A stretch of 64,000 nucleotides of DNA from the IMG/VR virus record IMGVR_UViG_3300021399_000146; one strand, given 5' to 3'. The notes beneath the pieces were generated by a model. It searched no databases. It was not told where the DNA came from and saw only the letters and a list, made by a program, of their open reading frames with translations. Origin of the DNA: an uncultured virus (IMG/VR IMGVR_UViG_3300021399_000146). Lineage: Duplodnaviria; Heunggongvirae; Uroviricota; Caudoviricetes. Positions 2,192-64,000 of the stretch are shown here, piece by piece. The first letter of the stretch is position 1. Each line of letters opens with the position of its first letter. The translations under genes were made by a program, and so were the position numbers.

Positions 2192-3205
2192 TTAGTCCTT
2201 GTCTTCTTTGTCTACACTTTTATTTTCTTCTGTTAATGAAACAGGATTGTCATTGATCTTAACACCTGTTGAAGGATAATCGAGTATTGCCTTCAATGAT
2301 GCGTTCTTTAACTGACCAGGTTCGGCAGGACCTGGGGTACCAGATATACTTTTATAGACCATATCTGTGAATTCTTCCTGCTTTTTCTCAGTCTGAACAT
2401 CATCCTTTGATGGTATTCCTTCTGCAGAAAGAACAACCCCTGTCTTTTTGAATCCTGGTTCAGGAGCTGCGGATATTCCATAGAAAGATGATAATTCTGC
2501 TTTCATATTGTTTGGTTTATTATTCCATAAAGAACTGCTGAATGAAGGCTTTTTCTCTCCTATCTTTTCTGGAAAGGGAAATCCTGTATTTCTAAAGAGC
2601 GATGGTGTCTTCTCATCACTACTCTGTTCGTCAGGTTCGTTGGGTCCCTTCTGAACTTCATCATTGCTTGATGAGGCAGAATAATCACCCCAGTTCATGG
2701 GACCCATCTGTCTGCGAGATATATCACTAGGTGTCTCTCCCGTCCATTCTTTAGGTATCTCCATAGGAACAGGAGCACCATACAGTGGCTGAACATAGGA
2801 AGAGTAAGGATTGTTCCATACAGGAGGCTGCTGTGGCATTGACTGCCCGAAGAAAGGATCAAAAGCCGCGGTCTTACACTTATCTCTGAATTTCTCCAAC
2901 AGAGATATGAGTCTGTCAAGATCACCTATTGTTATACTATGCAGTCTGCAACGACTGATGAATGACAGTTCTTCATATGTAAATTCTCTCTCGAGAATTG
3001 TTTTACCAATTGAACCAAATGGCTGAGGAACAATGTAGCCTGCATATGTCGTATTATCAAGCAGACCTCCATTGGTGTATATGTCGTTGTTCATTGCTTC
3101 CTGAACAGCACGGCTATGGTTGTACCATACAGCCTCTGCCTCTGTCGAACCTAATGGTCTTATGTCATTATTTGTATTATTATTCACCATTTCAAATACC
3201 TCCAT
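2192..3205 (-). CDS. Hypothetical protein, largely disordered P/S/Q-rich, with SRRQM motif
   Basis: Long ORF; low-complexity central and C-terminal region. Confidence 0.75.
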   Translation of the reverse strand: MEVFEMVNNNTNNDIRPLGSTEAEAVWYNHSRAVQEAMNNDIYTNGGLLDNTTYAGYIVPQPFGSIGKTILEREFTYEELSFISRCRLHSITIGDLDRLISLLEKFRDKCKTAAFDPFFGQSMPQQPPVWNNPYSSYVQPLYGAPVPMEIPKEWTGETPSDISRRQMGPMNWGDYSASSSNDEVQKGPNEPDEQSSDEKTPSLFRNTGFPFPEKIGEKKPSFSSSLWNNKPNNMKAELSSFYGISAAPEPGFKKTGVVLSAEGIPSKDDVQTEKKQEEFTDMVYKSISGTPGPAEPGQLKNASLKAILDYPSTGVKINDNPVSLTEENKSVDKEDKD

Positions 3206-3253: not shown

Positions 3254-3757
3254 TCATCCTTCAGAAACGATGTCCGCTTCTACATGTGGAATGTTCTCGT
3301 TGATAATAGCAGTATCAACCGTTAACGGTTCGCTGCTTTCCTGTTCTTTCGGCATACGATTCATATCGATTACATCGATCATGCCTTTTGTGCAAAGATC
3401 AAACCATGCACGTATCTTGGCTTTGAGTTCAGGATCACGTATAAGATAGAATGTTTCTTCAACCTTACCATCATACTGATAGTATGCTTTTGCTATGGGT
3501 TTATCAGCGCCAACTACTATTGCAGTTGACCATGCCGCAAAAGCATTCAAATCTCTGTTGGCAATGAGAACAATATCACCGATTTCACTCGGTATTACTG
3601 CTTCAAAGGTATGGTTTCTTGCATTGAAAGCGAACTCTTTACCAAATACCGATTCACCCGATGATACTATTCCATCGAGTATATCATGAACGATATTGGT
3701 ATAGATAACACTTACCCTTTTGAGTTCGTCCAATGCCATCTTCGACATCTGTGACAT
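3254..3757 (-). CDS. Hypothetical protein (167 aa)
   Basis: GGAGG SD, terminator hairpin at 3223..3248 downstream. Confidence 0.75.
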   Translation of the reverse strand: MSQMSKMALDELKRVSVIYTNIVHDILDGIVSSGESVFGKEFAFNARNHTFEAVIPSEIGDIVLIANRDLNAFAAWSTAIVVGADKPIAKAYYQYDGKVEETFYLIRDPELKAKIRAWFDLCTKGMIDVIDMNRMPKEQESSEPLTVDTAIINENIPHVEADIVSEG

Positions 3758-3776
3758 ATTATTTACCTCCGTTTAT

Positions 3777-4349
3777 TTATATCATGTCTTTTACACTCTT
3801 GAGTGTTATACCAAGAGTGTCTATAATATCTTTACGTTCTTTGAGATCATCTACACAAACGTAGATACCGGTTTTATTTTCACCAGTTGCCATAGGATCT
3901 TTGTTTATAATAACATTGTTACCAACATAGTCTTCCTTACCCCTAAATGCTTCATGGAATTTGTTGGCAATCTTGTCATTATTTTCAGATCCAATGATCT
4001 CGATATTGATCACGGGTCCATTATATTCACCGAACATAATACTTTCCTCCCTTCTTAATTTGTCTATGGCGGACTGTACAGAGCCTTCTCCGTTGGACTG
4101 ATCGTATAACCATGGATCTATCTCATCATCAGTTATATCACACTTAATGAGATGACCGTATACATAATTAAAATTCAGTCTGTGATTACCCTGTATGCGT
4201 TGATTGATACAATGTTGTGCTTCAGCTATAGTGAATCCTTTATCACTCAAGCCCAAGGTTCCTATGACGGATAACCCGTGTACTTTTGAATGATCCCAAA
4301 GTGCTTTTAACACTTTGGCTTTATCGAGACCTGTGATATCTACCACCAT
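3777..4349 (-). CDS. Conserved phage hypothetical protein
   Basis: N-terminal pattern DITGLDKAKVLKALW...FNYVYGHLIKCD...DPWLYD.SNGEGS resembles a small uncharacterised phage family; GGAGG SD. Confidence 0.7.
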   Translation of the reverse strand: MVVDITGLDKAKVLKALWDHSKVHGLSVIGTLGLSDKGFTIAEAQHCINQRIQGNHRLNFNYVYGHLIKCDITDDEIDPWLYDQSNGEGSVQSAIDKLRREESIMFGEYNGPVINIEIIGSENNDKIANKFHEAFRGKEDYVGNNVIINKDPMATGENKTGIYVCVDDLKERKDIIDTLGITLKSVKDMI

Positions 4350-4465
4350 GATGTTTTACCTCCAGAATGTATTTATTTATAACATATCCCCATTATCCAA
4401 ATTTATTACTACCACCAAACTACCATAATATTTTTATGTTTATATCACCCCCTTGAACATTGGGC

Positions 4466-5156
4466 GTTGAGTTGACCAGACTCAACCGGTACCTTCCTCT
4501 CTCAGCCGAACAGAACCTCGACTTGATGGAGCCGTTACTTTACCTCACAGCACATAACTCTGCGAAACCAGGACTAGACACCGACAAATGCAACCTAACT
4601 TAACATAGCCTGTACCGTCTTCACTCTACCTTGCTTATCCCCACCGTGGCTTAGCAAGTCCTAACCGCTGTGTAACATGAGCTCACACAATCTGACCGGA
4701 CCGACACGCGACGAAACTGCATGCTGCGAAGCTGTACCAGAGCGGCATATAACCATAACCAATCGCTACGTTATATGGCCAGGCCATACCAATACTAAAC
4801 GTCCCAATCTAAACGTCACAACGCCACTGCTGAACATAACCTCTCTTCACCTCGCCCTGACTCGACACCACACCACTGTACTTTACCCACGCTTGGCCTA
4901 ATGCAACGCAACTGGACTCGACAGTACCATTACCACATAGCACAAATCAGTACGTAACCATACCTCAAATATACATGACATTGCACAACCTGAACAAGAC
5001 GCGGCACTGAGCGACGAGACCTGATCACACCGTCACGATACAAAATCACGCATCGCAAGACCAGAACATAACCGGACCTAACCAACACCACTGAACGCCG
5101 CTATCCTTGCCTAACCTGTACTTTACGTCTCACGTCGGGTTGACAGACCCGGAGAC
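4466..5156 (-). repeat. Degenerate pentanucleotide-periodic array (NNN-RC on +, GY-NNN on -) bounded by two related hairpins; candidate ncRNA/guide array
   Basis: E.g. tttac ctcac agcac ataac tctgc gaaac; tcgac accac accac tgtac tttac; markedly C/A-skewed and more GC-rich than the flanks; no credible ORF; strand inferred from flanking genes. Confidence 0.75.
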
Positions 5157-5347
5157 AACGCGTGGTTTAACGTTCCACGAGAACGTCTATTGTCATTGAC
5201 ATTAATTACCTTTCACAACATTTCTTTTTACCTCCATTTATTATTTATATGCAATATAAAATGTTTTATTCTTTTATATTGCATATAAATAATATACATG
5301 TGAAAATAATAAAAAATAGAGACGGGGCGTAATGCCCCGTCATGTAA

Positions 5348-6103
5348 TCAATCGATTGATTCAACATCCACATCCGGATCAAATGATTCAATTGATGATA
5401 CACCAGATTCAGCTTCAATCGGGGTAGCCTCAATATCATCACTATCATCGGACGTAAGATACTGTTTTATATATTCATTTGCATGTTTATCAATGCAATC
5501 GAGATCCTCATCTGACATAGATGTGTAAGCTCTTAATACAAAGAGTCCTATCATATCATGAGGGACTTCTGTACACATAATATACAGCCAGAATATAGGA
5601 TTCAACTGATCAGGATAACCGTATGTTTCAGCAGCTACTGCAGCATCATATACTTCAAAAGGAATATTCCACATGAAATTCTGATTCAGTGTTTCAGCAA
5701 GAGGAATATCTTTGAAGTATTTGTCCTGATATTTGAGAAGTAATGATAATACAAATGATATTTGATCATCGTTCAACTCATAATCATCAAAGTTCTTTGG
5801 TGCTGAATTATCTTTCTCAGCCATCTCCTTCATTGTTAACAACATTTGCTGAATGGTGTCATTCAGTGTTGCATCAATTGGTGGGTTCTCGGGAATCACG
5901 GGAATGTTTCTTGCGATGGCATCATTCAGTAATTCACCAAGTTCTTTTTTATCTATCATGGGTGGAATGATTGCTGTTGATTCTTTCAGTTTATCACATG
6001 CCTCATTGATAGCTGATCTGATTTCCTGTTTCATTTCGTCAACAGTGGGTGCAGACGTCTTAGCACCCACTACTGATTTAGATAACAAATCACAATATTT
6101 CAT
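5348..6103 (-). CDS. Hypothetical acidic protein (251 aa)
   Basis: Long ORF, SD, downstream terminator hairpin near 5322. Confidence 0.8.
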   Translation of the reverse strand: MKYCDLLSKSVVGAKTSAPTVDEMKQEIRSAINEACDKLKESTAIIPPMIDKKELGELLNDAIARNIPVIPENPPIDATLNDTIQQMLLTMKEMAEKDNSAPKNFDDYELNDDQISFVLSLLLKYQDKYFKDIPLAETLNQNFMWNIPFEVYDAAVAAETYGYPDQLNPIFWLYIMCTEVPHDMIGLFVLRAYTSMSDEDLDCIDKHANEYIKQYLTSDDSDDIEATPIEAESGVSSIESFDPDVDVESID

Positions 6104-6119
6104 TATAATTCACCTTCCT

Positions 6120-6983
6120 TTACAACCATCCAGGAGTTATTCTACCATGCATATGATCAGTCACATTAGATGCAACTGTATATACATCAGGAAGATCCGG
6201 ATTGTTATCAATCTTCATATATTTCGAATCAACAGGGAACATCTGATATTCCTGTGTCATCTTTAAACCGTTTGTACCCTTAAAGAGTCTTATTCTCTCT
6301 TCTCCAGAGATTCTTGCTCTCAATTCTCTATCTTCGTATACCTTTCCGCATACAGTACATTTATAGCTTGAGAAATCTGAACCTGCAAATGCCATTGTTT
6401 TGTTACCACATATACATTCGAACTGATCCATCGAAGATGGGAATATATATGCATAATCAATACATACTGGTCTATTACCTGGAGCTAATCCCCAGTTTGC
6501 ATAGGTTCTTTCTGTCATACCTACATCACCAAGCAAATATCTTTTACTCCATTCTTGAAGAATTTTTCTTATTGATGAATTGTGTTGCCACATTTCATTT
6601 TGTGAAGTAAAAGCGGGACAGTAGTCGGCCACCAATAGGTGGCCACCACTACTTATCTCGTACGCGTAAGCAACATTTGGCATCAAATCTTCACATATTG
6701 AGAATTCCTGCATGTTATCAGCAACGCCTTCTCGATCGAGAGCGATCTTGAGAGCATAGCCGTCATACTTCACAATGAAACGATTTGTACCAGTGCCGAT
6801 TTCTATATAATCTATATCATACTTTTGTAAGAGTTCAATTACTTTTTCTTTTCTGGAAGTAGCTCTCAATCCCTTCTGGAGAGGGATCTCACCTATTTCA
6901 CATTTGAACTCTAACGGAAGAGAATTGAGACGTGACCGGAATTGACGCTTGTATTCGTCAACGAGGTTTACGTCTTCATTCAT
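6120..6983 (-). CDS. Protein-kinase-fold protein with C-terminal zinc ribbon
   Basis: Gly loop IGTGTNRF, beta3 Lys YALKIA, helix-C Glu (NMQEF), catalytic-loop-like GDVGMTERTYANWG, DFG-equivalent IDYA; CxC...CTVC. Confidence 0.7.
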   Translation of the reverse strand: MNEDVNLVDEYKRQFRSRLNSLPLEFKCEIGEIPLQKGLRATSRKEKVIELLQKYDIDYIEIGTGTNRFIVKYDGYALKIALDREGVADNMQEFSICEDLMPNVAYAYEISSGGHLLVADYCPAFTSQNEMWQHNSSIRKILQEWSKRYLLGDVGMTERTYANWGLAPGNRPVCIDYAYIFPSSMDQFECICGNKTMAFAGSDFSSYKCTVCGKVYEDRELRARISGEERIRLFKGTNGLKMTQEYQMFPVDSKYMKIDNNPDLPDVYTVASNVTDHMHGRITPGWL

Positions 6984-7000: not shown

Positions 7001-7774
7001 TTAATAATTAGCTGATGCCCAGTTTCTTTCAGCAACATCGTTCCAGTTCTGAGGAACGGCATACTGCTGAACGGGATACTGAGGCATCTGAGGCTGAGGT
7101 GCCTGAAGTGTGAAAGGATTCTGCTGCTGATACTGTCCTCTCCAATCGATATTACTGGGAGACATCAGGGGTCTGTACTTTGTATAGCAGTTATCCCATG
7201 AGTTACTCCTATCGAATGAAGGTACTGATGAAGGATTGTAAAGTGCTGCAGTATTCATGTCAACCTTGAAACCACAACCCATTCCATATGGATCATAGGG
7301 GTTCTGTCCAAAGAACGGACTTAACATTGACTGCTGCGGTGCCTGAGGTGCGGGCATCTGAGCAGGCTGATTCTGAGTAGGAGTTGCCCAGGGATTATTC
7401 TGGGATACCTGAACGGGATTGTTCATATTCCTTCTGGAATCAACCAGAGCATTGAGACCCATAGGCTGTCCATTAGGTGTTGCCGGAGGATATGTGCCGA
7501 AAGGCTGTACCATATTCTCAGGGATCGAACCATTGGTGTTGTTTGCGAACGGATTGGTTGCAGTGGGCATCATGTTGGGCTGAACCTGACCATATGCATT
7601 GAAAGGATTCACAGGATTGAAATTCCTGCGGGAGTTGGCGTCATTCATATATGACATACCACCCATCATTCCAAAGCTCTGGCCATTCCAGAACATGGTG
7701 TTCTGCTGAGGCTGCTGATACGTATGCATCAGGAAGCTTCCGCCATTGTCTGTCGGATAATCGGGATTAAACAT
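7001..7774 (-). CDS. Q/N/P/M-rich prion-like low-complexity protein
   Basis: Almost no charged residues; two SRRN motifs; AAGGAGG SD. Confidence 0.8.
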   Translation of the reverse strand: MFNPDYPTDNGGSFLMHTYQQPQQNTMFWNGQSFGMMGGMSYMNDANSRRNFNPVNPFNAYGQVQPNMMPTATNPFANNTNGSIPENMVQPFGTYPPATPNGQPMGLNALVDSRRNMNNPVQVSQNNPWATPTQNQPAQMPAPQAPQQSMLSPFFGQNPYDPYGMGCGFKVDMNTAALYNPSSVPSFDRSNSWDNCYTKYRPLMSPSNIDWRGQYQQQNPFTLQAPQPQMPQYPVQQYAVPQNWNDVAERNWASANY

Positions 7775-8542: not shown

Positions 8543-10033
8543 TTATACGGCTGCAACATAATTGATCCTTTGTATACCAGTATAAACAGGTATCGAAACA
8601 CTCACATTTTCCATTATGTCATCTTTTAGACCGAATGATTGTACAGATATAAATGGATGCCTGATGGCTTGAACACTGTTATCGGAATTATTATCCAAGT
8701 CTCTTTGCTTTACAGCTTTGATCATTAGATACTTTACTTCGCCATTATTTTCAATATTCATTAATGCCATCCAGTCAGCAACCTCCATAACTTCCCATGC
8801 TACAGACACGTTAGCTCTACCCATAGCTTGGTCAGTCTTGTTAAATCCTCCAGCCTTTACGATATCATCAACTTGTCGTGCTGCTTCTCGGTTGAGCTGG
8901 TGACCTGATACGATAGGTATATTGAGTTCTGCAGCAATAGTCTTAAGCTCATTCATTATTGCATGAAGCTCAGACTTTTCAGAAGAGGTAACAGCTATAT
9001 CTGTACGACCAGGTCGAATACGTTTAATGTAGTCAAGATATACCGCAACAACTTCAGAGTCTTCTGTATTATATGATCTGATTATAGCGTCAAGATCCTT
9101 TGTGGACTTTTCTCTATAACCATAATACAGAATAACACTTCTCATTCCCTTAGCTGTCAATTCATTATTGATCATTTCAGTTATTTCATCAATTGTGAAT
9201 GACGCTATATCAGCAGTTGGGAATAGAACACTCCACAATCTACGTATAGTTTGAGCCATGGTATTCTCCATGGATATATACATTGATATCGGGGTCTTTC
9301 CATTTGTTGTATTCTTTATATGCTCATTATATTTCAACGTATCGACGTGAGACTTTAACAATATACCCGACTTGTAGTTACCGGGTAAAGCTGCATATAT
9401 GTACAAACATCCACCAAGATATCCTGGCGAAAGAAGATTGTTTAAACCACGCACTCCTGTGATTATACATTTATCAGGTGACCTAGCTTCTTTTGCTTCT
9501 GCAACAGCAAGCTTCATTGCGTCTATGTAAGCTGTATCAAATGAATGTACAACAGATTGAACATTTATAGACTGATATGCCTTTGCTATCTGCTGTGCCA
9601 GTTCATAAACCTTTTCTATACTATCATGAATATTCTCATCGTCATCATCTATAATATCCAAAGCCTTTATGAATGGTTCTTTCGCCTTCAAAATCAAAGC
9701 ATACTTTATATAGTCTGCCAATTTTCTACAAAGTCGATTACATTCAGCTTGAGTCGATATAGTTGGAGCACTTTTGAGAAACTCTATTGCTTCGATAATG
9801 TCCTTGTCTTCTCCTTCATCTCGCATTGCATCGAGAATCAGATCAACATTCTTGATGTTCTGTTCAATATACGATATCATTCGGTGAGCAGCCAAACAAT
9901 ATATGGATTTCGAAGGATACGTGGATATGGCTTTATCAAACAATACAACAGCCTGCGCATTATTGAGATCTTTCTTACTACTACAAAGAATCGATATTAT
10001 GTCTTTATATATGTAATTTTTTAAAGTCTTCAC
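8543..10033 (-). CDS. dnaB: DnaB-like (SF4) replicative helicase
   Basis: Walker A ALPGNYKS, YISMEN, Walker B VYLDYI, H3 motif IVSGHQLNR. Confidence 0.85.
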   Translation of the reverse strand: MKTLKNYIYKDIISILCSSKKDLNNAQAVVLFDKAISTYPSKSIYCLAAHRMISYIEQNIKNVDLILDAMRDEGEDKDIIEAIEFLKSAPTISTQAECNRLCRKLADYIKYALILKAKEPFIKALDIIDDDDENIHDSIEKVYELAQQIAKAYQSINVQSVVHSFDTAYIDAMKLAVAEAKEARSPDKCIITGVRGLNNLLSPGYLGGCLYIYAALPGNYKSGILLKSHVDTLKYNEHIKNTTNGKTPISMYISMENTMAQTIRRLWSVLFPTADIASFTIDEITEMINNELTAKGMRSVILYYGYREKSTKDLDAIIRSYNTEDSEVVAVYLDYIKRIRPGRTDIAVTSSEKSELHAIMNELKTIAAELNIPIVSGHQLNREAARQVDDIVKAGGFNKTDQAMGRANVSVAWEVMEVADWMALMNIENNGEVKYLMIKAVKQRDLDNNSDNSVQAIRHPFISVQSFGLKDDIMENVSVSIPVYTGIQRINYVAAV

Positions 10034-17185: not shown

Positions 17186-18010
17186 TCAAATATATAATTT
17201 AATGTATGACTCACGTATGAGATTCGTTAAATTCTGATATTTCTTTGAATCATAACCGTATCCAATATACAACTCAATGAAATATCCTCTTGTTGGATCT
17301 TTGTATATACTTATTATAGAATCACCTTCCAAAAGATTTAATTCATCTATGATATCATAAACATAATTTGTTATCTGCGACTTGTTGTATACATTTATCA
17401 TGCATTGCAAATCAACACAATCGACATCATGTTTTACCAGTGATTCAATATCTGATCCAAATACTGCTTCTATATCAACCAATGCTGAATTATGACCATT
17501 TATCTGTCTCAACATGTCAATGCGATTAAAATCGTATGAAGTCTTTGTGGGGAATTGATTCATTCCTATACATTCTTTGAATTTCATTATATAATATGGA
17601 ACATTTTTTGCTTGTTCTATTAGCAACTCACGCAAAACATCGACGAACTCATCCAGATCGGCATATCCTTGATTTTTGATCATATTGATTATCAGTGGAG
17701 GAGCGGCCATATTTATGAAGCCAATCATTTCTGATAGAGATACATATAAATGGAACACATTTTCTGATTTATCATAATGGCTGCAGAAATGTTCATTAAG
17801 TGAATTCAGATTATGCTGTCTGAGGTATAATCCCTCATAAAATATTCGATACAATGGTTCTATAGGATGATCAATGTCTTCAATTATCATTCCTATAAAT
17901 ACTTCCTGAAAGAGTCTTTCATTCTCTATATTGTTCTTCAACAAATACGGAAGCATTGTGTCTTTCGAAAGGTATAAATCATCATCTATCCATATATTCT
18001 TAATCCGCAT
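17186..18010 (-). CDS. Hypothetical protein (274 aa)
   Basis: GGAGG SD; downstream terminator hairpin near 17161. Confidence 0.8.
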   Translation of the reverse strand: MRIKNIWIDDDLYLSKDTMLPYLLKNNIENERLFQEVFIGMIIEDIDHPIEPLYRIFYEGLYLRQHNLNSLNEHFCSHYDKSENVFHLYVSLSEMIGFINMAAPPLIINMIKNQGYADLDEFVDVLRELLIEQAKNVPYYIMKFKECIGMNQFPTKTSYDFNRIDMLRQINGHNSALVDIEAVFGSDIESLVKHDVDCVDLQCMINVYNKSQITNYVYDIIDELNLLEGDSIISIYKDPTRGYFIELYIGYGYDSKKYQNLTNLIRESYIKLYI

Positions 18011-38870: not shown

Positions 38871-41800
38871 GTGACTAATATGGATATTAAAAGATCGAAT
38901 GTACCGGATAATACATCTGGTACAGCTGATTTTGATGATTTTGAAGATAGGGATCCTGATGATTGCTATTGTGAATCTACATCAGAATCCAGTCATCTTT
39001 TCCAGGAAGCATCACATAAAACAAAACTTAATCGTGAGAAGAACAAGATCAAAGATGATTTGAAATATAACAAATCTACTGGTGTCGGTGAGCTTCATGA
39101 TTCATCATCAGGTATATCAGTTCCCGTCAATTTAACATTTGACAATAAACGCCAAACAAGCACAGGTTATTTGACATATAAGAATGGTAGACGAGCTGTT
39201 GGAATGAATATAAATCCAAATGATCTTAATAGAGGACATGGATTTACAAAGTACCTCCATGAAAAGAATCACATTTTACAAGATCTTAGAAAAAGAAATG
39301 ATGGAAATGATAACAATGATCTCAGCATGATATCGGCATTCATCAGTAAACATTCCAATGAAATAAAAACATCTCATTCATCTGACAAAGATGAATACCT
39401 AGCTGATTTAAACGTTGCAAGAACACGAGGATATGATAAGACAATCCGAATGTTACAAGATATGATGATCAAACCTTTAAAATCATCACCTTCTGCGAAG
39501 CATTCTAAATCATTTATAAACAAATCAGCAAATAATAAAATCGATAATGAGTTATCAGATGAATTCTTAAATGAACTTTATAAAGAATATAATGAGATGC
39601 TTGATGACGAGAAATTATTGTTAACTGCGATGAAAGCCTCTAGAAATGTTGGTGAACATCACTACAAATCTCTTGAAAAGCGCATAAAGAAAATGGAATC
39701 CGATACCAGTTCCAAGGAACACTTTATGAAAGTTGCTCGTCAAGCATCGTTCATTCAAGAGGTGAACAAAGGAATTGACGAACATAACTCTGACTTGAAA
39801 TTAAGGATTTTATTCTTAAGAGATATGAAGAAGATCGATTCTACAAATAACGATATAAAATATAAGAAAGAGAAATCATTCACTGAAAGTGGTGAACCAA
39901 TTCTTTCTTTATTTAACACAATTAACAATAGAGCATATGATAATACATCAAAATTACAAAGTAAAATAGATGAATTCATCATTGAACATTTCGGCACCAT
40001 AGACAACAATGATTTTGTAAATGGAATGATTCTTTCATATGTGATACTTGATTATGTTGAAGAAATAATTAATAACGAAGGAGATGTTATAATGGAATCT
40101 ACATATACACCGTTATCAGAGTTTGATCATTTCTTCTTAGAAGGATATTCCAAGAAACAGGAACGTCGTGTAGAAAAGTTCTTAAAAGAAAACAAGTTTG
40201 AAGAAGATCCTTCAAAGACAACTGATGAAGAGAAACGTAAGGGTTATCGTCGCGGTACCATCGAGACTGATATTCCTGATGAAAACGGTAAGAAGCAACG
40301 TGTTCCTTTTGAGATGTCACCTCATGATGATACACCCGCCGAAGTTAGAATAAAAGGTGACGATAAATATGAAATCCATATGAGTAAGAAAACCGTTTCA
40401 AGAAAACCGGCCATATCCAATTTCATATTTAAACACGAAGAAGGACATGTTGCGATCCGTCTTGATAAGTCTGGTAAATATGTAATGGAAATGGAGGAAA
40501 TTGATAAGATACTCACAAGGTTGCTTCATAAAATGTTCACTAACAAAAATGATACTTTGAATTCACACGACAAAAATATTGAAGAATTCTTAGCAGATAA
40601 ATATGCCAAAGAACATTCAAAATATGATAAGACATCAAAGTATAGTTTGCGAGATGAAGGTGTTGATATAAGTACCAAAAAGGCACTAGTTGGTCTACAA
40701 TCATTATTATCGGATGATGTTTATTCAAAGAAAACCTTTCAGCATCAGTATAATTCATATGTGCTACCTGAAGCAATGAATATGATGAATAAAAAACATC
40801 GGGAAGATGTTAAAAAATATAATGATTATCGAAGTATGTTACAATCATCATTAGATCATGTTAATGATACAAACAAACTTCTTGTTGAATTTAAAAACCT
40901 TATGCGTTCAGCAGAGTTTCGTCTTAAACAAAATGAATCTGCCTTAAAAAGATATAAAGCTGATATTGAAAGAGATCACCGTGCAGCCTATGATCTAATG
41001 AAAATGTATTCCGATGATCTCAATAATGAATTGATAATAGCAAGAGAGAATGGCCATGTATTATCAAAGGCTGAACGACGTAAAAAAGTGGATAAAATGT
41101 TTTATAAAATATACATGTCCGCTTTGGGTTCAAGACCTGAAGTAAATAGATATATTAAATATACTATTGGTAGTTCTGATGAAAAAGACTATCCTGAAAA
41201 ACTCAAGAAAGATCTTGATTCTTACAGAGAAAATGTTATTTTCAATAAATCACATTTACAATCTTTGATGAAAAATGTGAAAGAAATTGAAGAAGAAGTG
41301 ACTGCTGCAATTAAACGTTCCGAGGAGTTGAAAAACGAGATTAAACGAATGTCTGATGAATTAGATGAATACTATGAAAAAACGAAAACTTCTAAATCTA
41401 CATATAAAACTGAAGAGTTCCAAAAATGTCTTGAACGCGTTAAAATGAAAAATTATTCTCTAATGTCTAAAACAAGTCTGTTCAACGATGATATGTCAAC
41501 CGCTGTAAGAATACTGATGTGCTTACCAAAAGAGGAACGTGATAGATTCGCTAAAGAGGTCCATGATGTGACATTGAAATATGCAAAAGCTGAAAGAGGT
41601 GAGTCAACTGTGAATGAATCATATGAACCATTATCAGAGTTTGATCATTTCTTCCAGGAAGCTAAGATGAAAGCTAAGACAAGAAAGGAATTAGATGATT
41701 CTGATTTTGCTTTGGTATATAAAGATGCTTCTGGTGAAAAGATACGTAAGTATCCTATAAATGATGAGGCTCATGTTAAAGCAGCTGCAAGAATGTTTCC

Positions 41801-63892: not shown

Positions 63893-64000
63893 ACATATCT
63901 ATCGATGATGTTCTTACATGACATCTATACAGGGATCATTGTCTATAGACTAATCCATTGTACGATTCTTACTTGAACTACCGTACCTAACTTGATTATC

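Follow-up and report, generated by a model that had tools for sequence, protein, structure and literature searches.

A periodic GYNNN array in an uncultured ruminant-gut phage, probably a guide-RNA array of a VIPR system

VIPR, first described in 2026, is a CRISPR-related, RNA-guided DNA silencer of phages. According to the accessible text of the preprint describing it (bioRxiv 10.64898/2026.04.26.720920), the system consists of Vipr, a stand-alone RAMP protein, and of guide RNAs (vrRNAs) built of GGY/NN pentamers; structures are reported separately (bioRxiv 10.64898/2026.04.26.720927). The former text also gives NNNGG, YNNNG and NNNNG as alternative vrRNA repeats, states that vrRNA architectures differ among VIPR types, and mentions 'staggered' arrays with overlapping vrRNAs that were unconfirmed by RNA sequencing. 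The systems characterised so far come from phages of E. coli and Pseudomonas and have short GGYNN guides. In addition, solo vrRNA arrays are described for VIPR-null SUSP1-like phages and satellites in the accessible part of bioRxiv 10.64898/2026.10.15.759431, and a genomic language model found non-canonical VIPR-like 5-mer arrays of about 10 repeats, as stated in the available portion of bioRxiv 10.64898/2026.10.21.760802. Here, we analysed a 64,000-nucleotide stretch of DNA (the window) of an uncultured virus, IMG/VR record IMGVR_UViG_3300021399_000146, in which positions 4467-5179 of the minus strand probably constitute a vrRNA guide-RNA array of a VIPR system, carried by an uncultured jumbo-type phage of the ruminant gut.

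Periodicity of the array and its counterparts in related phages

The initial annotation, made from the letters of the window alone, described positions 4466-5156 as a non-coding array with a period of 5 nucleotides (nt) and a composition unlike that of the AT-rich genome. The 691 bases of this interval comprise C 229, A 208, T 136 and G 118, and their G+C content is indeed 50% against 37% for the 64-kb window. The autocorrelation of C reaches +0.33 at lag 5, where a peak had been predicted, and +0.25 at lag 10; from lag 16 onwards the peaks lie at 5n+1 (+0.15 to +0.18 at lags 16, 21, 26, 31, 36 and 41), which indicates a phase slip of +1. The maximum of the periodogram lies at 5.15 nt with a power of 7.43. 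By comparison, 300 dinucleotide-preserving shuffles gave 0.92 ± 0.27 with a maximum of 1.88, which leaves the array about 24 standard deviations beyond them, far above the shuffled controls that had been proposed as a check. When segments of 600 nt were slid along all 64 kb, the power rose to 9.2 in the array, and the best unrelated site reached 1.98.

Read on the minus strand, positions 4490-5130 parse into 125 units (98 five-mers, 21 six-mers, 5 four-mers and 1 three-mer), which agrees with the more than one hundred GY-NNN units claimed at first sight. Position 1 of the five-mers is G in 89% and position 2 is T in 71% or C in 19%, with positions 3-5 near even; about 19% of all parsed units lack the G-Y pair. 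By parse and periodicity the array body, about 125 GYNNN pentamers with GYNNNG six-mers among them, occupies 4486-5126 (minus strand). The interval first proposed therefore holds for its interior only, since both of its outer ends, 4467-4487 (a 3' hairpin) and 5127-5156 (a leader hairpin), are hairpins rather than pentamers. The six-nt units starting with C that had been noticed on the plus strand are real: on the minus strand they read GYNNNG (20 of 23 with the terminal G), each shifts the register by +1, and their extra G's split the array into roughly 20 to 25 blocks. Their supposed spacing of about 30-40 nt, however, is irregular in the window, and it is in relatives that a peak at 7 units, equal to 36 nt, appears. 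The consensus at block borders is weak (0.1-0.3 bit). The array RNA is predicted to be no more structured than shuffles (z +1.5), as expected if it is a single strand coated by protein, and a search of Rfam with 3500-6500 (evalue mode) gave 6 weak matches, none of them inside the array and none near its own gathering score.

Relatives were collected as 8 IMG/VR loci found via the helicase of the window, and their 8 contigs were scanned whole for period-5 power. In the closest of them (locus L003 on contig G002) the corresponding site is occupied by an array of 226 units, which has its statistics, leader and 3' elements in common with that of the window. The bodies of these two syntenic arrays share no significant similarity, whereas the proteins on either side show identities of 46-82%; both arrays retain the G-Y scaffold (G 88-89%, Y about 90%). 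The idea of a fixed scaffold with variable positions is thereby supported by direct observation, as the frame persists and the NNN content of the window cannot be aligned with that of its closest relative. G002 has three arrays (at 17.2, 68.4 and 155.4 kb), G003 two, G006 three and G008 three, which makes 11 with those of G002; the scan found none in G001, G004, G005 and G007. Together with that of the window, 12 arrays of 5 phages are thus available, with 51-401 units (262-2056 nt), 78-92% G-Y and 12-18% six-mers, and with unrelated unit content. Blocks between six-mers, pooled over the arrays, are 6-8 units long in 186 of 341 runs, against about 58 expected if the slips were random. The period-5 signal is asymmetric between strands (G on one strand) and always lies on the transcribed strand of the neighbouring genes.

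These data bear on the simplest alternative, namely that the array is a compositional artefact or a degenerate, functionless microsatellite. The units without G-Y (about 19%) would speak for it, but the distance from the shuffles, the recurrence of one architecture in 12 arrays with unrelated content and the non-geometric block lengths refute it, and we regard its probability as negligible. We also saw a few near-identical blocks between arrays: one pair from two G002 arrays (17237-17975 and 68419-69432) agrees at 13 of 15 variable bases, and a block at about 4713-4737 of the window agrees with one of G002 array 1 at 12 of 15. At least 13 identities were reached by 5 block pairs, where a unit-shuffled control yielded 1.

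The locus or parts of it occur in 20 runs of 12 studies, all of ruminant or other animal gut samples, and the array bodies differ between strains by block replacements. In a DNA contig of run X10, the 724 nt adjacent to the array body (3790-4513) differ by 6 letters and one gap, and the array itself has 89 nt replaced by 36 nt, 151 nt replaced by 279 nt, and indels of 5, 6 and +5 nt. The array in a contig of run X3 has lost 14 nt in one deletion and carries 9 substitutions clustered within 24 nt. Among 24 array substitutions between strains, 6 fall on position 2 and all of these keep a pyrimidine. Three runs contain extra copies of the leader (described below) with other flanks, as would be expected of phages with several arrays each. 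A separate observation concerns the RNA library of run X15, which contains a 1,363-nt contig with another leader copy (matching window 5148-5185) and with both flanks different. This hints that the library contained a second array of the window phage, or of a related phage, either as RNA or as DNA carried over.

A RAMP-fold protein beside the arrays of relatives and the probable place of vipr

The likeness to VIPR that the initial annotation suggested is supported by related phages, where a stand-alone, Cas7-like RAMP gene neighbours arrays of this kind; one such array has the leader of the window. Homologous proteins of 298 and 213 amino acids (aa), 32% identical, are encoded beside G002 array 2 and beside the array of G003, respectively, and both contain the C-terminal motif GTGQWRNSGKG, which resembles the G-loop of SUSP1 Vipr. 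The family is large (5,026 matches) and has no Pfam domain. Its model (predicted local distance difference test score, pLDDT, 82.6; predicted template modelling score, pTM, 0.77) matched 100 chains at E <= 0.001 in Foldseek, the best being Csm3 6ifl_F at 6.7e-6, and the best 40 of these 100 are all CRISPR effector subunits, mostly Csm3, Cmr4, Cas7, type VII Cas7 and Cas7-11. An independent fold search, VIA-align, gave Z 11.2 for Cmr 6s6b_I (root-mean-square deviation 3.8 over 159 aligned residues), Z 10.9 for type VII Cas7 and Z 10.7 for Csm3, with 29 chains at Z >= 8. The predicted structure is decisive for a RAMP fold of the family, and we refer to its gene as vipr below.

The RAMP gene (213-298 aa) also occurs in G006 and G008, where arrays flank it, and it was not found in G001, G004, G005 and G007. 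Thus, arrays and RAMP gene co-occur directly in the relatives: arrays are present in 4/4 contigs with the gene and in 0/4 without it. An all-against-all BLASTP search for an accessory vap gene found only the RAMP common to the four vipr loci. Other cas-like genes were not noticed near the arrays, where no systematic search was made, and no CRISPR repeats were seen. In G002, array 2 begins 6 nt after a 157-aa gene (G002 67893-68366, that is, L015 7893-8366), which directly follows the 298-aa gene and so lies between vipr and the array. The end of its product (..DGNPTNL..NLGW..) looks like what we take to be an HNH homing-endonuclease motif. HNH-type accessory proteins are mentioned in the accessible text of the VIPR preprint (bioRxiv 10.64898/2026.04.26.720920).

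Vipr is a stand-alone RAMP with an RRM core, a G-loop and a thumb, and where its gene might lie in the window phage can be estimated from gene order. Of 58 called window genes, 52 match G002 in order along 96.8-160.8 kb and six have no match, and the vipr locus of G002 lies at 66.9-69.5 kb. The window being collinear with G002, its syntenic vipr locus is probably encoded about 27 kb to the right of base 64000, the right end of the window, provided that the gene order holds. Within G002, remote arrays lie at distances of 50 and 88 kb from vipr, and within G006 and G008 the distance is 10-12 kb, so that arrays far from vipr are usual in this phage group. For annotation this means that the lack of a RAMP gene next to a period-5 array does not make the array an orphan.

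The initial annotation had nevertheless considered an orphan array, and in part it was right, as no vipr is present in the 64 kb seen; synteny with G002 would place the vipr locus outside the window. A solo vrRNA array in a VIPR-null phage would agree with that absence and with the solo arrays known from SUSP1-like VIPR-null phages (bioRxiv 10.64898/2026.10.15.759431, in its accessible part), and the ruminant-gut data do hold related phages both with and without vipr. We nonetheless think this improbable, because the four vipr-less contigs among the 8 relatives carry no arrays at all, the closest relative has both the syntenic array and a vipr gene, and the window represents only about a quarter of the expected genome.

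Leader, flanking genes and targets

We return to the reading as a VIPR guide array and to the elements that surround it, all of them on the minus strand. Upstream, the intrinsic terminator of a 251-aa gene (5321-5341; an 8-pair stem followed by a T run) is conserved in L003. It is followed by an AT-rich box, TATATTATTTATATGC (5281-5296), which is identical in the window and L003 and may serve as the phage promoter of the array transcript; a sigma-70 scan found no minus-strand promoter at this box. Similar boxes precede the genes at the same site in the array-less loci L002 and L004. Between box and leader, at 5213-5236, we noticed GGAGG, 8 bases and then ATG TTG TGA, that is, a ribosome-binding site with an open reading frame (ORF) of two codons. 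In L002 and L004 a protein gene stands directly under the control of this box and ribosome-binding site, and for this reason the array may have been inserted behind a pre-existing gene start.

The leader consists of two hairpins, and one copy is present in the window and one before each of the three G002 arrays, including the array beside vipr. Hairpin 1 (5161-5179; CGTGG...CCACG) is invariant in these four leaders, although RNAfold predicts it in 2/4 and an alternative pairing in the other 2. Hairpin 2 (5127-5156), predicted in 4/4, has a constant outer stem GTCTC/GAGAC and an inner stem that varies. The inner stems CGGGT/ACCCG, CGGGGGAT/ATCCCCCG, CAACTT/AGTTG and CGGTGA/TCACCG all differ and yet keep their pairing, i.e., they show compensatory changes. 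In G003, G006 and G008 the leader was found neither by a strict pattern nor by eye upstream of their arrays. At the other end of the array lies the 3' hairpin GTTGAGT-CTGGTCA-ACTCAAC (4467-4487), which is not followed by a T run and was not called as a terminator. A hairpin at the 3' end is common to the window array and G002 array 1, with different stems and a similar TGGTCA loop; RNAfold predicts that of G002, and for the window it gives an overlapping alternative stem, CCGGU/ACUGG. The array as a whole has one 3' hairpin, the form of which recurs in G002 array 1, and no tail occurs between blocks. Downstream of it, the box AAGGGGGTG (4446-4455), identical in the window and L003, is followed by the ribosome-binding site of a 190-aa gene.

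This gene (3777-4349) lies directly downstream of the array and is probably co-transcribed with it. It is followed by a 167-aa gene (3254-3757) and a 337-aa gene (2192-3205), both of which accompany the array in the window and G002 only; the array and these two genes are missing at this site in the six other relatives. Only the C-terminal third of the 190-aa protein is found in L004, within a longer ORF, and its homologs are limited to the one beside the syntenic G002 array plus 9 metagenomic proteins. Pfam and PHROGs, searched with 26 window proteins, gave no family for the 190-, 167-, 337- and 251-aa neighbours. A search of IMG/VR for related loci with the 190-aa protein returned none, the sequences of the 190- and 251-aa proteins had no relevant match in the PDB, and atlas look-ups of the 167- and 190-aa proteins gave no usable match. 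We considered the 190-aa protein as a candidate Vipr and rejected it for now, as it is not a recognisable RAMP. In its model (pLDDT 76.5) the N-terminal half is poorly modelled and mostly helical, with three short strands; the C-terminal domain is of a generic ferredoxin-like type, and the best match (Z 6.9) is not RAMP-specific. The strong matches include no RAMP (a single Cas6 row had E 0.44), and the C-terminal domain recurs in an array-less relative. A 338-aa ORF at the array-less syntenic site of G003 (about 40776-41800, L011) ends in some 80 residues that resemble this domain.

The array follows a promoter-like box and leads into the 190-aa gene without an intervening terminator, which raises the question of whether it is a periodic element unrelated to VIPR: a long structured or protein-sequestering 5' untranslated region that regulates the 190/167/337-aa operon, or a DNA element (origin, packaging, bending). 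That the three downstream genes occur only where the syntenic array occurs is compatible with the former, and a period of 5.15 near half of the 10.3-bp helical turn is compatible with the latter. However, G003, G006 and G008 have such arrays next to the RAMP gene and lack the 190-, 167- and 337-aa genes there, and other arrays end in terminators with no gene following on the same transcript. The lack of excess RNA structure and the constant placement of the signal on the transcribed strand of the neighbours argue in the same direction. We consider such an element very improbable.

For the VIPR reading, which we prefer, the following course of events can be proposed, partly by analogy. Transcription from the upstream phage promoter would yield an RNA that starts with the two-hairpin leader, passes about 125 GYNNN pentamers and continues into the 190-aa gene, and that may then be processed. 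A Cas7-like Vipr, made from a gene outside the window and acting in trans on the remote array, as would be the case in G002, would polymerise on this RNA with one protomer per pentamer, clamping the fixed G and pyrimidine. Each protomer holding one G-Y would expose the variable bases for gapped pairing with the DNA of a rival element, which would be silenced. The single extra G's, roughly every 7 pentamers in the relatives, would mark guide-sized blocks of about 36 nt. In two RNA libraries of the probable source sample, contigs lie on both flanking genes and none on 4372-5127, a result to be read with the reservation that contigs cannot show absence and that DNA was possibly present.

Several ways of decoding the variable bases were tried. 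For scans of IMG/VR we decoded a single clean block of the window, with its 7 units at 4534-4568. It gave 0 matches with all NNN joined and 0 with NNN plus one skipped base, and with NN plus one skipped base (14 fixed bases) at least 104 matches, which is the chance expectation. Among the latter, two lineages reach 20/21 when the third N's are counted, namely 2 loci of an 8-locus group (on 106-147-kb contigs) and one 6.7-kb contig; the 147-kb phage contig G009 contains such a match (GY pairs removed) at about 84761 (L206). As a target this match was judged to be due to chance, since the matched stretch is a common peptide in common codons and none of 250 other blocks converges on the same phage above shuffles. 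It would deserve a second look if a triplet code were ever shown. Reading NNN as in-frame codons was also rejected: no frame beats independent positions, and TAA and TAG are depleted together with other TA-containing triplets. Decoded guides as ribosome-binding or start regions were not supported either, as Shine-Dalgarno-like words occur in 61 blocks against 56.8 ± 5.4, and ATG with such a word upstream was seen once where 3.8 cases were expected. The surplus of ATG is due to the unit immediately following the extra G, which is often GTATG (30/72) and has a weak GTATG/GTAnn preference.

A number of results weigh against a VIPR guide array. The gapped-target search that the initial annotation had proposed as a check was made in the window and the 8 contigs with arrays masked (1.64 Mb of related phage DNA), and it failed to distinguish real from shuffled arrays, both for exact gapped words under 14 rules and for best-match fractions under 9 rules with 227 blocks. 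The absence of a recognisable RAMP/Cas7-like gene nearby, also noted there, was confirmed for the window with the family hidden Markov model (HMM): among all six-frame ORFs of at least 60 aa, no Vipr-like gene was found (best E 1.3). The RAMP family itself resembles SUSP1 Vipr weakly and in the G-loop region only (BLASTP E 0.037; hhalign E 0.045, probability 1.2%), and its best PDB sequence match is the G-loop of Csm4 at E 0.34. Two of the array-less contigs are incomplete (G005 is 100% and G007 92% complete, G001 61% and G004 25%), and since the contigs are related, the split of 4/4 against 0/4 amounts to fewer than 8 independent observations. Moreover, the spacing of six-mers in the window array varies from 1 to 8 units, the array lacks the per-guide 3' tail of published type II vrRNAs, and position 1 is hit by 4/24 strain substitutions, so that no extra constraint on the G is visible in this small sample.

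Some of the features could mean more than a further VIPR array, namely a distinct architecture with blocks of about 36 nt as independent guides and a code other than the published 1-nt skip (e.g., one reading all three N's), with the leader as a loading or processing signal and with turnover of cassettes. We find this conceivable but unlikely. If it were true, the leader would enable a single Vipr gene to act on several arrays of kilobase length spread across more than 100 kb, and the replacement of cassettes would imply a mechanism of guide turnover, which is not known for VIPR.

As to the remainder of the window, it is a piece of a large phage that encodes a DnaB-like helicase, a GroEL-like chaperonin, a dCMP deaminase and a primase-like protein; the genes neighbouring the array are all on the minus strand, and megablast of 3700-6200 against 50,697 phage records gave no match. 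A 257-aa protein at 7001-7774 (minus strand), conserved in most relatives, is of low complexity and very rich in Q, N, P and M. The helicase gene (8543-10033) is uninterrupted in the window, whereas its homolog matches in two pieces in L003, L004, L007 and L008, with a gap of about 0.95-1.15 kb in L003 (11236-12186) and L004 (11242-12396) and of about 0.4 kb in L007 and L008. The split could be due to an intein, an intron or an inserted homing gene.

Comparison with known systems

The case adds to what is known of VIPR a remote array, a shared leader, the normality of arrays far from vipr within a phage group, and block turnover at the level of strains. The ruminant-gut jumbo phages concerned carry up to three arrays each, of 51-401 pentamers, in the less studied YNNNG spelling, and the roughly 340 guide blocks of the group are a natural set for working out its pairing code. 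The conserved leader is a testable candidate for a loading signal, and the block replacements between strains bear on how guides are renewed.

Of the described systems, the YNNNG form of VIPR is the closest. Read cyclically, GYNNN of the window is YNNNG, and in both a phage-borne pentanucleotide repeat has a fixed G and Y and three variable bases; in both, as far as the accessible preprint text allows the comparison, a stand-alone RAMP gene is flanked by long non-coding arrays, here in the relatives. As YNNNG repeats are already in print (bioRxiv 10.64898/2026.04.26.720920, accessible part), the GY/NNN register is not the new variant that the initial annotation had envisaged. The abutting, tail-less guides described here may correspond to the 'staggered' arrays of that preprint, a comparison made by its text alone. 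The same text, its figures aside, does not contain arrays of 262-2056 nt, punctuation by an extra G, a two-hairpin leader or arrays 50-88 kb from vipr.

Type II VIPR of SUSP1 (KT454805.2), with vipr, vap1 and four vrRNAs, shares with our arrays a 5-nt repeat RNA and, in the relatives, the placement of arrays in intergenic gaps beside vipr, as well as a small RAMP (about 195-215 aa in SUSP1) with a C-terminal G-x-G-[DQ]-W-R G-loop. Its vrRNAs differ in being GGYNN repeats of 9-16 units, each with a conserved pseudoknot tail, and in following a 1-nt skip rule; the arrays analysed here are of GYNNN, run to hundreds of units and have no per-guide tail, and the similarity of the proteins is marginal. 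Solo vrRNAs, defined in the accessible part of bioRxiv 10.64898/2026.10.15.759431 as having no vipr within 20 kb, resemble the window array in just that respect. They are, as far as that part describes them, tailed GGYNN arrays of SUSP1-like phages, whereas here the relatives suggest a vipr gene elsewhere on the genome.

The backbones of class 1 CRISPR effectors (Csm3, Cmr4 or Cas7 on CRISPR RNA) have in common with our system the fold modelled for the associated protein of the relatives and, as proposed here, one protomer per fixed step of RNA, although their step is 6 nt and ours 5 nt. The arrays found by the language model (bioRxiv 10.64898/2026.10.21.760802, available portion) likewise combine period 5 and non-GGY motifs with neighbouring Vipr-like folds; their motifs GAC/NN, CAC/NN, WGT/NN and TGH/NN have three fixed positions, in contrast to two fixed positions and 51-401 repeats here. 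Taken as a whole, the array of the window is most likely a further example of the known VIPR kind and not a new kind of element.

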